A stretch of 32,000 nt of DNA, taken from assembly GCA_030149205.1 (NCBI GenBank), contig JASBSB010000004.1, positions 120,001 to 152,000 on the forward strand, written 5' to 3'. This document shows positions 16,082 to 23,549 of this stretch, piece by piece. The notes under the pieces were generated by a model. The model worked only from the letters and a program-made list of their open reading frames with translations. It was not told the DNA's origin and searched no databases. The position numbers and the translations under genes are program-made. Within the stretch, counting starts at the first letter, position 1. Each line of letters opens with the position of its first letter. The DNA comes from Candidatus Heimdallarchaeota archaeon. GTDB taxonomy: Archaea; Asgardarchaeota; Heimdallarchaeia; Heimdallarchaeales; Kariarchaeaceae.

Positions 16082-17803
16082 CTAACGAACAATATGGGAA
16101 AGCTCGTGAAGGTAATTAATAAGTCGAAATTGTTCCACGTTTTGTTTGGTTTGAGGGTTGCGATTCATCGCGATATACCATTCACTAAATTCTTGCTCTA
16201 ACCATTTCAATTCTTTCTCTACCTGCTGTTCTAGATATTCTAGGCTGTTCTCCTTAGCAATTCTTTGATTTTCTACCAATATTGTTCTTGCCTCATCAAT
16301 TTCAAAGTTGAGAATTTTCAATTTTGATTTGAGAATACTTACACGAATTATAAGTGGTATTGATTCTCTCAGGGCAATCATACCTGTAAGTTGCTCTACA
16401 AGCTCAACAATTTCATTATTTATTTCTGAGGTTCTGAATATTTTCATTTCTTGTAAAAGTATCTCAACTAAGGCAATTAACGCATTAATTTTAAGGTGTG
16501 TGGGCGTACTCTCATCCTCAATTACAGAATATAAAACAGTGGTTGCGGTGGAAAGAGATTCAAACCTAAGTTTAGATTTCAATATGATTGCTTGAGAATA
16601 TGTAACATATGAGTTTAATAGATTTATCTGAGGAAACTCCTGGGCTAAATCTCTAAGCTTTTCAAAATAATCGTTAGCTTGATCTGGTTTATTCAATTCA
16701 GTGTAAATAGATACCAGATTATACAAAATCTGTGCTTTCATTGTAAAATTGCCAGGTTTGGAAAGAACTTCTAATAAAGAAACTAGGTACTGTATCGCCG
16801 ATTCTGGATGCCCTCGAAAATACGCAATTTTTGCAAGTTGTAATACAGACCTACTAATAAACATGGCATTTTGCTTTTGATAGGCTAAGCTCAGACACTT
16901 TTGAAAGTTTGAGGTTGCTTCTTCAATTTGACCAATCTCAGCAAGATAATCTCCCAAAGCGAGATATGCAAATAAGTTTGAAAACTTATCATCTGACTTC
17001 TCATAGTACTCTATTGATCCGTTGATTATAGATAATCCCTTTGAAATTCTACCTGATTTTAGTAAATAAATCCCTTCCCAAAATTCAATACGTGGTCGCA
17101 AATTTACGAGACCAAATCTGTCAATTACTTTTGCTAAATTTTTTATTGAGTAATTACTATTTATAATCTCATTTTGATCATACTCACAATGGATGTGCTC
17201 AAGATTTAGCATTATATATTGATAGACTAAATTATTTTCAAGTAATTGATTTGAAAGGTAGTCTATCTCAGTTGCATCACATCTACCTTTACGAAGGGAT
17301 ATTATAAGACCTAAGCTATCTATAATGAAAGAAAATATTGTTTCTGGCTTACTTAGAAGTAGATTCAACACATCTGAATGAAATATCTCCGCATCGTCAA
17401 TTTCATATTTATTAAGAGCCAAAAGGATTTTTAATAAATATAGACCTAGTACGAAATAATCCTTTAACTCTTTTCCTAAAATAGAATTTTGTAAAAGTTG
17501 ATTTAATGTTTTTACCTGAAATTCTAATCCGTCATTGTCAGAATTTATTACATGAACTATTCCTTTCAAGATATTCAGGTACAAAATTTGTTCTACCGTG
17601 AGATTTTTACTTTCAAGTGTTTGTAATTGTAAAGTCGCTTCTTTTGCCTTCCCCTCGTTCAATAAACAACAGATATGGTTTAATTTTGCAGTTGGTGACT
17701 CACATGAGCTTAGAGTCTTTTTTAACTCATTAACCTGTGGTAGGGAATCTAATTGGATAAACAACAAAAAGTTGTTATCTAATAGGTCCACCAACTTCTC
17801 CAT
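16082..17803 (-). CDS. TPR/helical-repeat protein
   Basis: Repeated TPR-like units (AYLALGDYLAEIGQIEEATSNFQKCL; LQLAKIAYFRGHPESAIQYL; LYNLVSIYTELNKPDQANDYF). Confidence 0.75.
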   Translation of the reverse strand: MEKLVDLLDNNFLLFIQLDSLPQVNELKKTLSSCESPTAKLNHICCLLNEGKAKEATLQLQTLESKNLTVEQILYLNILKGIVHVINSDNDGLEFQVKTLNQLLQNSILGKELKDYFVLGLYLLKILLALNKYEIDDAEIFHSDVLNLLLSKPETIFSFIIDSLGLIISLRKGRCDATEIDYLSNQLLENNLVYQYIMLNLEHIHCEYDQNEIINSNYSIKNLAKVIDRFGLVNLRPRIEFWEGIYLLKSGRISKGLSIINGSIEYYEKSDDKFSNLFAYLALGDYLAEIGQIEEATSNFQKCLSLAYQKQNAMFISRSVLQLAKIAYFRGHPESAIQYLVSLLEVLSKPGNFTMKAQILYNLVSIYTELNKPDQANDYFEKLRDLAQEFPQINLLNSYVTYSQAIILKSKLRFESLSTATTVLYSVIEDESTPTHLKINALIALVEILLQEMKIFRTSEINNEIVELVEQLTGMIALRESIPLIIRVSILKSKLKILNFEIDEARTILVENQRIAKENSLEYLEQQVEKELKWLEQEFSEWYIAMNRNPQTKQNVEQFRLINYLHELSHIVR

Positions 17804-19228: not shown

Positions 19229-20176
19229 TCAACCCATCAGATTCTGATATAAATTTTCTAAATCTTCATCGGAAGAAACTATCAGATCAACATCATTGAG
19301 TTCTTCAGGAGTTAAACTAAAAGTACCTTGTCCTCCAATGGCGATTTGAACATGATCTCCAAGGTTTTCATGGATAAACTTTACCTGCTTAATCAATGTT
19401 GATGAATACAAAGGAGAAACCAGCGAAAAAAATATCCACACTGGAGTCGTATTGATAATTTTCTTTAGAAAAGTCAAGAAATCTTCTGTGGGGACTTTAT
19501 ACCCAAGGTTAATGATTTGGTAGAAAGGATTAAATAAAAATTCTAGAAATATTAAAGGAAGAACATGTTCTTCACCTTCAGCAGGAACTAGGACTATTGT
19601 ACCTCTTTCTTTTTCCTTCGTTTGCTGAGCAATCAAATAACGAAGGTAAGTTTCAATTCTGTAAGATATTATGTGCTCCTCAGAAATTGTCAAAGTACCA
19701 GTTGACCAATCTGTTCCAACTTTCCTCATCAGAGGGGTCATTAGTCTTAAAATTAATTGAGTATCAGTAAGACCAAATGAATTGACAGTTTTGTCTAAGT
19801 AAAAATTGGAATAGCTGTTATCGAGCAAAAGTTTAGTTAGACCTTCTAGGTCATCTGCATTAAGAACTTTAGTTTTGTTTACCTTTGGCTTTGAGGGTGG
19901 TTGCTTTTCATCAGCCCTAAAGTATTGCTCAACAATTGAATCTCCGACTAATGTGATTACAGTGTATCTTCCCCTTCTTAAATGTCTCTTTTCAACATTT
20001 ATAACCCTTTTAAGCTTGAGTTCCTTCATTGCGTTTGAAATTGTGCTAGATTTTAATCCATACTCGTCTCTGAACTCTGAAATTGGAACCTCTCTTCCCC
20101 GATTCAATTTAAGATGTCTTAAAATCACCTCTTTTGCTGAAAGTTTTTCTATGTTTTGAATTTTATTGTTCAACAT
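19229..20176 (-). CDS. Winged-HTH + cobalamin-binding transcriptional regulator, CarH-like
   Basis: N-terminal ~78 aa wHTH (ISEFRDEYGLKSSTISNAMKELK...RGRYTVI); B12 cap with W157-x9-E167-H168; Rossmann domain with E202-x-H204, NLG and GG; 20 bp downstream of crtB. Confidence 0.8.
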   Translation of the reverse strand: MLNNKIQNIEKLSAKEVILRHLKLNRGREVPISEFRDEYGLKSSTISNAMKELKLKRVINVEKRHLRRGRYTVITLVGDSIVEQYFRADEKQPPSKPKVNKTKVLNADDLEGLTKLLLDNSYSNFYLDKTVNSFGLTDTQLILRLMTPLMRKVGTDWSTGTLTISEEHIISYRIETYLRYLIAQQTKEKERGTIVLVPAEGEEHVLPLIFLEFLFNPFYQIINLGYKVPTEDFLTFLKKIINTTPVWIFFSLVSPLYSSTLIKQVKFIHENLGDHVQIAIGGQGTFSLTPEELNDVDLIVSSDEDLENLYQNLMG

Positions 20177-20185
20177 TTTATCATC

Positions 20186-20199
20186 CTGTTCATGAACTA
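20186..20199. promoter_or_regulatory. Candidate operator, copy 1 (CTGTTCATGAACTA)
   Basis: 12/14 match to the palindrome TAGTTCATGAACTA with a perfect 10-bp core; lies at the crtB stop, immediately upstream of the SD-like AGGATGA of the B12 regulator. Confidence 0.55.
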
Positions 20200-21207
20200 A
20201 AAAGGATTGTTCACAGCTGTCAACGATTGTAAGTTATGACAGCTAAAAACCTCAATTGGCTTCTCCTTTATATTGATCTTGAGTTTCAGGGCTATTGCAA
20301 TTTTTCGAATCTTTGATACGACTACCCTCTTTTTTAATACCGGGTAGTTTTCTCTTTGGCTTTGAAGCACGATCTCCCTGTAAACCTTTCCAGCAAGAAT
20401 TAAAGGATAATGAGCATACTCAGGCAGATGATAGATTGAGTACATAGAATCTTCGTACATCTGAAGAACGAGTTTTGATAAGTATTTCATAAACCCTGTA
20501 AAGTTCTCCTCATATTCATTTCCCTCTATTAGTTCGGCTATGTTGTGAATTCCAAAGGAACTAAGCATTTCTTTTGGTAAATATATCCTACCATTGTCAT
20601 AATCCTCTTTAACATCTCTGAGAATGTTTGTAAGTTGCATTGCCTCACCTAATAGCTTTGCTTTTCTTAAAATTTTTTCATTTGGGTTTTTCATTATTAA
20701 GTGTGTCATTATACAACCCACCGTCCCAGCTACAGAATAAGCATATTCTTGAAGTTCCTGGAAGGTATTAAACTGTGTCATCTCCAGGTCATTCTTCATT
20801 CCTGAGATCATGTCTCTGAAATAATGAATTGGTATTTTTGAGCTTCTAATTGTGTTTTGTACTAATCTTAGAATGGGGTGATTAGGGATAAATGAGGACA
20901 GGTTATTGAGGAAAAAATCAAGTTCAGATAAGTATTGGTATTTTTTAGATTTTTCTAGCTCAATTGAGTCAGTTATATCATCTAAGATCCTCAAGAATGA
21001 ATAGATTACCTGAACCTTCATGTTAACATCTTCAGGAAAGAACTTTGATGCAAAAGAAAAAGATTTGGCCTTTATATTCATTATATCATAACAATATTTC
21101 CTAGCGACCTCTTCCCCTTTGTTCATGTTTACAATTGGATACATTTCAAATAGGTAATGCTCTAGATTAGATAATTCTGTATTGAGCAGTAAATCATAAT
21201 AGTTCAT
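20197..21207 (-). CDS. crtB: Phytoene synthase
   Basis: SFSFASKFFP, ILDDITD (DDxxD), YAYSVAGTVG, LGEAMQLTNILRDVKEDYDNGRIYLP. Confidence 0.95.
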   Translation of the reverse strand: MNYYDLLLNTELSNLEHYLFEMYPIVNMNKGEEVARKYCYDIMNIKAKSFSFASKFFPEDVNMKVQVIYSFLRILDDITDSIELEKSKKYQYLSELDFFLNNLSSFIPNHPILRLVQNTIRSSKIPIHYFRDMISGMKNDLEMTQFNTFQELQEYAYSVAGTVGCIMTHLIMKNPNEKILRKAKLLGEAMQLTNILRDVKEDYDNGRIYLPKEMLSSFGIHNIAELIEGNEYEENFTGFMKYLSKLVLQMYEDSMYSIYHLPEYAHYPLILAGKVYREIVLQSQRENYPVLKKRVVVSKIRKIAIALKLKINIKEKPIEVFSCHNLQSLTAVNNPF

Positions 21208-21213
21208 GAATAA
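21200..21213. promoter_or_regulatory. Candidate operator, copy 2 (TAGTTCATGAATAA)
   Basis: 12/14 match to the palindrome; overlaps the crtB start codon. Confidence 0.55.
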
Positions 21214-21218
21214 TTGAA

Positions 21219-21232
21219 TAGTTCATAAACTT
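21219..21232. promoter_or_regulatory. Candidate operator, copy 3 (TAGTTCATAAACTT)
   Basis: 12/14 match to the palindrome; 19 bp from copy 2 and adjacent to the TATA element. Confidence 0.55.
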
Positions 21233-21235
21233 GTA

Positions 21236-21243
21236 TTTATATA
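21236..21243. promoter_or_regulatory. Probable bidirectional TATA box for crtB and crtI
   Basis: TTTATATA on + and TATATAAA on -; ends 23 bp before the crtI ATG (21266) and 29 bp from the crtB ATG (21207), in a 58-bp divergent gap. Confidence 0.55.
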
Positions 21244-21265: not shown

Positions 21266-22753
21266 ATGATGAAGCAGAAAAAGTCTGTTGTTGTTATCGG
21301 AAGCGGGTTTGGTGGATTAACTACTGCGATTAAGTTATTGAACAAGGGGTTTCAGGTAACTGTTTTAGAGAAAAATGAACAGATAGGTGGAAGAGCTTCA
21401 GTGCTTGAAAAAAACGGGTTTAAGTTTGACATGGGTCCAACAGTAATTACTGTACCAGAAATTTTTAGATCACTTTTTGAAGAATCTGGAAAAAATCTTG
21501 ACAATTATGTAGAACTATTACCAGTTTATCCCTTCTATAGGATTTATTTTGATGATAAAAGTAAATTTGACTATGGTACACCTGAAGACAATATCAGACA
21601 GATTAAAGAGCTAGAACCTGAAGATTTAAACGGTTACAGGCGTATGTTAAAGGATATTGAACCCATTTATAAAAAAGGGTATTTGGAACTTGCTACCAAA
21701 CCATTTTTGACAGTGTTTAGTATGTTAAAGATTGCACCTCTATTGTTTAAGCTCAAGGGCTATTTAACAAATTATCAGTTTGTAAGTAGGTACGTGCAAA
21801 ATAATAAATTAAGGCAGGTTTTCTCTTTTCATCCACTTTTGATTGGAGGAAACCCATTTTCTGTACCCTCAATTTACTCCTTAATTCAATACATAGAGAA
21901 AGAATATGGGATATGGTATCCAAGGGGTGGAACTGGGAGACTTGTGAAGAGTATGGGTCAATTGATTGAAGAGTTAGGAGGGGAGATTAAGCTAAATTCA
22001 GAAGTCGTCAATTTGGAAATTACCGATAAGAGGGTCACAGGGGTCATGATTAAATCTGGTGAAGTGCTTCATCCAGATTTTGTTGTTTCCAATGCCGACG
22101 TTGCAACCACCTACACAAAGTTGATAGACAAAAGATGGAGAAAGAAAAATTCTAATAAGAGATACGAAAAGGCTAAATACAGTATGAGTCTGTTTCTTAT
22201 TTATTTTGGGACGAAGAAGAAATATCCTGAAATGAAACATCACACAATTATCCTCGGGCCAAGATACAAGGGGTTGTTAGAAGATATATTTAAGAAAAAG
22301 ATATTAGCGGATGATTTTTCATCTTATCTACATGTTCCTTCACTAACTGACCCAGAGATGGCTCCAAAAGGGCATGAGGCATTTTATATTCTTGTACCTG
22401 TACCAAATCTGGATGCAGACATCAATTGGAAAGAAATGGGGGCCAAGTTAAAAACAAAGGTCTTAAACTTTCTTGATGAATTCTATTTGGAGGGGCTTCT
22501 TGAAAACCTGGTTGTGGATGAGATCTTTACCCCAAATGACTTTGCTACCAGATATCAATCATACAAAGGCACAGGTTTCAGTTTAGAGCCAACTATGAGA
22601 CAATCTGCTTATTTTCGTCCACATAACAGATCTGAAGATATCACAAATCTATATATCTCTGGAGCTGGAACACATCCTGGGGCTGGATTGCCAGGAGTTG
22701 TAGCCAGTGGCGAGATAACTGCAAATCTGATAGATGAGGATGCACATGCTTAG
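21266..22753 (+). CDS. crtI: Phytoene desaturase (CrtI family)
   Basis: VIGSGFGG FAD motif, EKNEQIGGRA, FDMGPTVIT, FSFHPLLIGGNPF, GAGTHPGAGLPGV. Confidence 0.96.
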   Translation: MMKQKKSVVVIGSGFGGLTTAIKLLNKGFQVTVLEKNEQIGGRASVLEKNGFKFDMGPTVITVPEIFRSLFEESGKNLDNYVELLPVYPFYRIYFDDKSKFDYGTPEDNIRQIKELEPEDLNGYRRMLKDIEPIYKKGYLELATKPFLTVFSMLKIAPLLFKLKGYLTNYQFVSRYVQNNKLRQVFSFHPLLIGGNPFSVPSIYSLIQYIEKEYGIWYPRGGTGRLVKSMGQLIEELGGEIKLNSEVVNLEITDKRVTGVMIKSGEVLHPDFVVSNADVATTYTKLIDKRWRKKNSNKRYEKAKYSMSLFLIYFGTKKKYPEMKHHTIILGPRYKGLLEDIFKKKILADDFSSYLHVPSLTDPEMAPKGHEAFYILVPVPNLDADINWKEMGAKLKTKVLNFLDEFYLEGLLENLVVDEIFTPNDFATRYQSYKGTGFSLEPTMRQSAYFRPHNRSEDITNLYISGAGTHPGAGLPGVVASGEITANLIDEDAHA

Positions 22754-23549
22754 CTACTCTTTGGTTCTGTTTGTATTCGTGGGGATTCCGACTCTTATCC
22801 TGGTGTTCATTTCCCTTTCAGTCAAAGTATTAAACAAACAGACTTCACTCTATTTATTATCTCTATCTGTTATTGCTGTTTTGTATACTACTCCCTGGGA
22901 CAATTATTTGGTGTATCATTCAGTTTGGTATTACGACCAGAATAAAATCTGGAATGTGTTCATTTGGTTTGTTCCACTGGAAGAATACTTATTTTTTGTA
23001 ATTCAGACATGGTTTACAGGGTTAGTAACGTTGTTACTAATACACAACCAAGATAAAATTAAGAACAACCATGAAATTATTAAAGTACCTAGTGAGTCAA
23101 GGGCAAAATTGACCTGGGTAATTAATGAAGCTGTGAATAATGTTAGAGAACCCAAGGCCATACTTTTAATTTCACTCACAGTTATGTCTAGCCTTTTACT
23201 CTGGCTATTTAAATTTTCGACACTTTTTTACTTTTTATTGATAACTGCTTGGGCTTTGTACCCAATCACTCTTCAGTTGGTTGTGGGGTTCAGATTTATT
23301 GGAAGATACGGGTCTTCCCTTCTTGCGGGGGTAACATTAACTTCACTCTATCTTTGTATAGTTGATTATATCTCAATAAACGATAAAGTTTGGGAAATCA
23401 ACAAGTTATACACAATAAATGGTTTAGGAGTCGGGGTACTTCCATTTGAAGAGATCTGGTTTTTCATTATTACAAATGTACTTGTCTCACTTGGAATCAT
23501 TCTGTTCTCTGTTATTGGGGGAATATCTGAATCTGTATCTGTCGATTAG
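22734..23549 (+). CDS. crtY: Membrane-type lycopene cyclase with two cyclase domains (CrtYcd-like)
   Basis: Two repeats with TTPWDNYLV..VWYY / PLEEYLFF and DYISINDKVWEI / PFEEIWFF. Likely start is ATG 22746, overlapping the crtI stop. Confidence 0.85.
   Translation: MRMHMLSYSLVLFVFVGIPTLILVFISLSVKVLNKQTSLYLLSLSVIAVLYTTPWDNYLVYHSVWYYDQNKIWNVFIWFVPLEEYLFFVIQTWFTGLVTLLLIHNQDKIKNNHEIIKVPSESRAKLTWVINEAVNNVREPKAILLISLTVMSSLLLWLFKFSTLFYFLLITAWALYPITLQLVVGFRFIGRYGSSLLAGVTLTSLYLCIVDYISINDKVWEINKLYTINGLGVGVLPFEEIWFFIITNVLVSLGIILFSVIGGISESVSVD

Follow-up and report, generated by a model that had tools for sequence, protein, structure and literature searches.

B12-dependent photoreceptor-repressors that control carotenoid genes have been described as CarH and class I LitR (Thermus thermophilus, Bacillus megaterium, Myxococcus xanthus PB; PDB 5C8E; PMC8156234). 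In these systems the regulator is encoded next to crtB/crtI and has a MerR-type N-terminal DNA-binding domain, and the adenosylcobalamin (AdoCbl)-dependent tetramer that forms in the dark and is disassembled by light binds three or four contiguous 11-bp direct repeats, nAnnTnnACAn, overlapping a sigma-A promoter of the carotenoid genes. A Wx9EH motif, which caps the adenosyl group and is reported as diagnostic for light-sensing CarH homologues, and the B12-binding motif ExHx2G...SxV/T...GG are their published signature (PMC8156234). In Archaea, repressors such as Phr of Pyrococcus furiosus (PDB 2p4w), MDR1, LrpA and TrmB bind between the TATA box and the start site, but none of these has a B12/light-sensing module. 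A further winged-helix regulator adjacent to a carotenoid operon is the MarR-type CrtR of Corynebacterium glutamicum, where the operator lies in the intergenic promoter region and pigment production is light-inducible (PMC5401885, PMC6739363). CrtR is bacterial, senses isoprenoid pyrophosphates and has no B12 domain. In the literature that we searched, B12-based light switches are described only in bacteria, with MerR-type heads and sigma-A promoters. We found no paper on an Asgard or other archaeal CarH-like regulator or its operator, and the one paper showing the Kariarchaeum crt operon calls the extra genes 'of unknown function' (PMC12137139).

We examined a 32,000-nucleotide stretch of DNA (here the window; assembly GCA_030149205.1, contig JASBSB010000004.1, positions 120,001 to 152,000) from a Heimdall-group Asgard archaeon of the Kariarchaeaceae, whose taxonomy was not tested here. 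The genome is 3.31 Mb in 12 contigs, with 35% GC, and was estimated to be 93.5% complete. In the window a gene for a winged-helix and B12 regulator (P0001, 315 aa) follows crtB, and a 58-bp spacer separates crtB from a divergent crtI and a lycopene-cyclase-domain gene (Table 1). An earlier note, made from the sequence alone, had reported three 12/14 matches to a 14-bp palindrome at gene starts of this cluster and had proposed that they are the operator of the regulator. The observation held: copy 1 (CTGTTCATGAACTA), copy 2 (TAGTTCATGAATAA) and copy 3 (TAGTTCATAAACTT) are present with the reported letters at the reported positions, as is the further match that the note had listed inside a TPR gene. 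Copy 1 lies between the crtB stop (TAG, 20197-20199) and an AGGATGAT Shine-Dalgarno-like stretch 5 nt before the regulator ATG (20176). Copy 2 covers the first in-frame ATG of crtB (21205-21207), and copy 3 ends 3 bp from the TATA box TTTATATA.

Table 1. Features of the carotenoid cluster and the repeated sites, in positions of the window
Position	Strand	Feature	Detail
21219..21232	-	Copy 3, TATA-proximal candidate operator site	Core 21222-21229 (TTTATGAA on the crtB strand); first member of the 19-bp-spaced pair; 6 bp from the TATA box; overlaps the expected BRE position of the crtI promoter
21200..21213	-	Copy 2, TATA-distal candidate operator site	Core 21203-21210 (exact TTCATGAA), followed by CT on the crtB strand; second member of the pair; over or just after the predicted crtB transcription start
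21236..21243		Shared TATA box TTTATATA of the divergent crtB and crtI promoters	Starts 30 nt before the crtI ATG; the same TATA-then-site layout is seen in 18 relatives
20186..20199	-	Copy 1, single site	Core 20189-20196 (exact); at the same place in the congener G001, just before its SD
19229..20176	-	Regulator P0001	315 aa; N-terminal winged helix (about residues 10-80) plus a CarH-type B12-binding module
20197..21207	-	crtB (phytoene synthase)	First gene of the crtB-regulator unit; SQS_PSY 1.6e-56
21266..23549	+	crtI (21266-22753) and a lycopene-cyclase-domain gene (22734-23549)	Divergent from the same spacer; crtI_fam 7.7e-181; CarR_dom_SF 4.2e-28
17546..17559		Fourth 12/14 match, inside the TPR gene	No partner site; probably chance and not part of the system

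To assess chance, we counted matches with at most two mismatches to the 14-mer. The window holds 4 against 0.19 expected, and 0 of 100 dinucleotide shuffles reached 4. The whole genome holds 31, or 0.30 per 32 kb, which agrees with the hand estimate of about 0.3 in the earlier note and makes the one extra hit in the TPR gene unsurprising. Three matches within 1.05 kb are therefore very unlikely. At three mismatches the signal disappeared (5 found, 3.5 expected), so the information is in the core. The consensus had been derived post hoc, as the note itself had cautioned, and we therefore sought tests that do not use the sites of this genome.

An exhaustive HMMER search of 1.84 billion representative sequences found about 13 full-length relatives of the regulator (E 1e-27 to 1e-56, 26–39% identical to P0001), whereas a search for related loci with the single protein gave only an irrelevant bacterial B12 protein. 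Every genomic context that could be fetched showed the same arrangement, cyclase-crtI <- -> crtB -> regulator, with the exception of one locus (L014) that has the regulator alone. A phylum-wide search found crtB in 47 of 400 Asgard genomes, and tblastn on the 30 loci returned placed the regulator next to crtB in 13 of them, namely one congener (G001) and 12 genomes of another Heimdallarchaeia genus. The regulator was absent from 15 loci, mostly from other families with a crtB-crtI tandem. Within the order of the window's own genome, crtB and the regulator occur in the same 2 of 47 genomes searched. Regulator-less crt clusters from that order were thus not found, and negative controls had to come from other Asgard families. 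The crtB upstream region of locus L008 is an assembly end that begins with an Illumina adapter-like sequence (positions 1-23) and could not be used.

Lack of conservation in orthologous promoters had been named in advance as a result that would overturn the operator reading, and the sites proved to be conserved. Marking the 8-bp core TTCATGAA (≤1 mismatch) showed it throughout the orthologous spacers, and 18 of 19 regulator-bearing loci have two cores 18 or 19 bp apart, the first beginning 0–5 bp after a TATA-like box, typically ATATTTAAAT. In an unbiased 8-mer count of the 8 spacers from other genomes, TTCATGAA was the most widely shared word (7 of 8 loci), and none of 1000 Markov shuffles reached 7. 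The next words were overlaps of the motif (up to 6 of 8 loci), and the best unrelated word was in 5. The crtI<->crtB spacers hold 33 exact cores in 3,619 bp against 3 in 111 kb of surrounding DNA, a more than 300-fold enrichment, and for cores with ≤1 mismatch the Poisson P was 5e-32. The regulator lineages are only 26–52% identical to one another, so the spacers are far beyond neutral conservation. All 13 regulator-positive Asgard genome loci have the pair and 0 of the 15 regulator-less crtB loci do. The regulator-less set includes a second crtB copy (L026) in G067, a genome of the regulator-positive genus g14. A second crtB in G066, a genome that does carry the regulator, also has no motif upstream (L015, which holds a second crtI/crtB pair). 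Regulator-positive and regulator-negative loci belong to different clades with different gene order, however, and the co-occurrence therefore reflects few evolutionary events. Locus L022 has the pair, but its contig ends right after crtB and its regulator status was not established. In the regulator-less loci L036 and L039, of one genus, a single TTCATGAA / TTCATGAC lies about 35 bp before crtB, downstream of a TATA-like ACATTTAAATATAG, with no partner site and no regulator nearby; we have no explanation for it. Staygreen-domain (PF12638) genes lie near the carotenoid cluster in two Heimdall-group genomes (L005 56-544; L015 5701-5943).

We next asked whether the motif is spread uniformly through the genome, the other distribution that had been set out beforehand as incompatible with an operator. 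It is not. A palindromised 16-column matrix built from 30 sites of other genomes, combined with the 18/19-bp spacing rule, gave three hits in 3.3 Mb, of which the crt spacer was first at 27.2 bits and the next two scored 19.8 (intragenic) and 19.6. The pair rule was necessary for this result, because a scan with the single-site matrix ranked the crt sites only about 20th, the core being short in a 35% GC genome. The exact core is not enriched genome-wide (136 found, about 117 expected from composition) and occurs in 16 of 2,042 upstream regions, among which only the crt spacer and one weak case hold an 18/19 pair. We therefore rejected a general promoter element. In four relatives of 4.3–5.9 Mb the exact pair TTCATGAA-N10/11-TTCATGAA occurs once per genome, at the crt promoter, plus one hit in G066 that lies inside a coding frame and is taken as chance, and the reversed control pattern gave zero.

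Other candidate regulon members in the window's genome were not convincing or light-related. The only other intergenic 18-bp pair (contig C4, 809885-809918; 2385-2418 of locus L016; 19.6 bits) lies just before a gene for a 225-aa winged-helix-like protein with no Pfam family, divergent from a Na/Ca exchanger, and that protein shows no significant similarity to the DNA-binding domain of the regulator. At C4 755211-755246 (L017 2211-2246), TTCATGAA and TTCATGAT lie 20 bp apart, the first overlapping the ATG of a 341-aa multi-pass membrane protein of unknown family. The best single site was at 249013 of contig C1, the contig of the window. The earlier note had also suggested examining rhodopsin, blh and photolyase promoters for the motif. 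No such genes were found in this genome, although the control genomes were also silent for PF01036 and PF15461 and those two blanks are weak. On present evidence the regulon is the carotenoid cluster alone.

Across 36 paired sites the core is almost invariant: position 2 tolerates A, and positions 3 and 6 tolerate a transition. On the crtB-proximal side the next two bases are C/G (26 of 36) and T (31 of 36), whereas the mirror positions are weaker (S in 13 of 36 and A in 21 of 36). The 14-mer of the earlier note (TAG-TTCATGAA-CTA) is thus a fair idealisation, but the conserved unit is the 8-bp palindrome with an asymmetric 3' [C/G]T. The sites have polarity and occur as same-orientation tandem pairs rather than as one long dyad. 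The note had contrasted a dyad site with the tandem repeats bound by CarH; the layout is closer to the multi-repeat operator of CarH than it assumed, although the sequence and the DNA-binding domain differ, and three or four contiguous 11-bp repeats of the CarH type are not what is found here. An 8-bp palindrome is short for a classical winged-helix dimer and 18–19 bp is not a whole number of helical turns. The stoichiometry was not measured, and each core might take a dimer (four heads per pair, which fits a CarH-like tetramer) or one head (two per pair).

The note had further read copy 1 as implying autoregulation. A site lies in the crtB-regulator junction in 11 of 19 loci (9.3 per kb against 1.4 per kb background, P = 7e-9), including G001, and in one subclade there is an 18-bp-spaced pair. 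The junction site is missing in the other 8 loci, and with a 20-bp gap the regulator here is probably co-transcribed with crtB anyway. The stand-alone regulator L014 (49% GC, no crt genes) has its only exact core in 8.9 kb located 44 bp before its ATG and 9 bp after a TATA-like box. This is the best single argument that the motif belongs to the regulator rather than to the crt genes.

We then considered promoter geometry. In this genome TATA-like words peak sharply at -30..-26 from start codons (67 against about 10 background) and SD-like words at -13..-8, and both leaderless and leadered mRNAs therefore seem to be used. The position of TTTATATA coincides with the peak for leaderless genes, and crtI is therefore predicted to be leaderless from this box, with its BRE position (about 21229-21235) overlapping copy 3. 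Read the other way, the same AT-rich box would start crtB transcription near 21214, placing the site centres of copy 3 at about -11 and of copy 2 at about +8. This geometry fits that of archaeal repressor sites downstream of BRE/TATA covering the transcription start, but the starts are predictions without start-site or other RNA data, and the match to that class is left undecided. The crtB start is itself ambiguous. The longest frame starts at 21207, inside copy 2, whereas relatives start with M-Y, corresponding to Met22 (ATG TAT at 21144); with that start the pair would lie about 60–85 nt upstream, as in most relatives, and copy 2 would lie in a 5' leader rather than on the start codon. In the spacers of L032 and L034 the pair is flanked by a TATA-like box on each side (GATATAT ... 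GTTTATAAAT), which suggests two face-to-face overlapping promoters sharing one operator.

The regulator combines a CarH-like sensor with a different DNA-binding head. W157-x9-E167-H168 is invariant in 14 family members, so that the Wx9EH signature of CarH homologues is present. For the second part of the signature the picture is mixed: E-x-H204 (the axial His) is invariant and S-x-V/T and GG are present, but the Gly after His is replaced (Pro in P0001; S/P/A/N/T in relatives) and the Pfam B12 hit is below its cut-off (21.5 bits against 23). The evidence for this motif does not fall clearly on either side, and cofactor binding is inferred. The predicted structure (pLDDT 85.7) matches photocobilin, CarH and AerR over the B12 module. 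No MerR hit was obtained, and the modelled head is a generic archaeal-type winged helix whose nearest structural neighbours are Stf76, CodY, PadR, Phr and MarR, all at E > 0.001. Its recognition helix S-T-I-S-N-A-I-K-E-L and wing G-R-Y-T are nearly invariant, while the rest of the protein diverges. Some family members (P0009 and P0012 in L011 and L013; P0008 in L015) are 366–382 aa long and carry an extra winged-helix-like unit at the N-terminus or between the head and the B12 module; these may be real second DNA-binding heads or mis-called starts. A homodimer prediction scored 0.75 against 0.00 for the best of 3 controls, a mark reached by 20 of 30 proteins solved as pairs of one chain and by 1 of 23 solved as single chains. 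Runs agreed in at least 63% of contacts with partner pLDDT of at least 78, and the interface, helix bundle 163-187 against Rossmann fold 220-244, is head-to-tail as in CarH. This model may reflect memory of CarH structures and does not show binding, and tetramer formation and its response to light were not measured. A PduO-type adenosyltransferase is encoded in the genome.

These results support the interpretation of the earlier note that the repeats are the operator of the adjacent winged-helix/B12 regulator, with the corrections to site structure and to copy 1 given above, and we put the probability of this reading at roughly 0.7. Sequence comparison by itself establishes a module of TATA box, 0–5 bp, TTCATGAA[C/G]T and a second copy 18–19 bp downstream, kept in the crtI<->crtB spacer of 18 of 19 regulator-bearing loci, with a further copy often preceding the regulator gene. 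The mechanism, in contrast, is inferred by analogy with CarH. In this view the AdoCbl-loaded protein would oligomerise in the dark through its B12 module and place its winged-helix heads on the site pair, which abuts the BRE side of the shared TATA box, so that one bound oligomer could block TFB/RNA polymerase recruitment at both divergent promoters, the classic position of archaeal repressors. Light would photolyse the cofactor, the oligomer would fall apart, and crtB-regulator and crtI-cyclase would be transcribed. The regulator would limit its own level through co-transcription with crtB and through the junction site. No binding, transcription-start or expression data exist, and the third result that the note had named as refuting, that the protein does not bind the motif, was not tested. 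Compared with CarH, the system would share a B12 module encoded beside crtB/crtI and short tandem sites overlapping the promoter, but would differ in its head, its site, its TATA/BRE-type promoter and its Asgard host. Like Phr and the other archaeal repressors it has sites immediately downstream of the TATA box, but their operators differ in sequence, and its motif is unrelated to that of CrtR.

Among the alternatives, the least improbable, though still unlikely, is that the sites are the operator of the regulator but the signal is not light, the B12 module reporting cobalamin supply or redox state, as other B12-binding regulators do, or the protein activating rather than repressing. The replaced Gly, the failure to find rhodopsin, photolyase or blh genes in this genome and the non-uniform geometry of L032 and L034 are compatible with this, whereas the invariant Wx9EH, the photoprotective nature of the pigments and the repressor position of the sites downstream of the TATA box speak against it. 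It is less likely still that a different, unlinked transcription factor binds the motif while the regulator acts elsewhere. No direct link between protein and DNA has been shown, and the pair at C4:809885 does precede another winged-helix gene. However, motif and regulator gene co-occur (18 of 19 loci against 0 of 15), the motif accompanies the stand-alone regulator of L014, which has no crt genes, the recognition helix is conserved in parallel with the core, and that other protein does not resemble the regulator's head.

Because TTCATGAA is a palindrome, two copies on one strand could also pair as an 8-bp hairpin with a 10–11-nt loop in the crtB leader RNA, or as a DNA cruciform. L009 shows one compensatory change and the window one G-U wobble. 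We nevertheless rejected a structural element as very unlikely: of 8 loci with a deviating core 6 break the stem (five A-A, one C-A), the flanks do not extend the pairing, single sites (copy 1 here, G001, L009, L014) cannot form the hairpin, and the first core lies so close to the TATA box that it would mostly not be transcribed. Chance or composition could be suspected from the AT-rich spacer, the common ATGAA (Met-Lys/Asn) start-codon context, the overlap of copy 2 and of one site in G001 with start codons, the frequency of one-mismatch cores (1.1 per kb) and the post hoc consensus. This was rejected by the tests independent of this genome's sites, the enrichment in the spacers, the absence of pairs from regulator-less loci and the fixed spacing and position.

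The conserved element is very probably the DNA target of a previously undescribed archaeal B12 regulator. A site module of about 27 bp and a 315-aa protein make the light-switch hypothesis directly testable. We consider it somewhat more likely than not that this is the first cis-element/regulator pair for light-controlled transcription in Archaea, in which a B12 photoreceptor would have been re-fitted with an archaeal winged helix to switch a eukaryote-like TBP/TFB promoter through a compact two-site operator shared by two divergent promoters. The system could also provide a light-controlled repressor that acts on a TBP/TFB-type promoter, and it offers a genomic marker for light exposure in uncultured Asgard lineages. 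It would give a first handle on signal-dependent gene regulation in the archaeal relatives of eukaryotes, and would imply that these Heimdall-group lineages, including rhodopsin-less ones, experience and respond to light.
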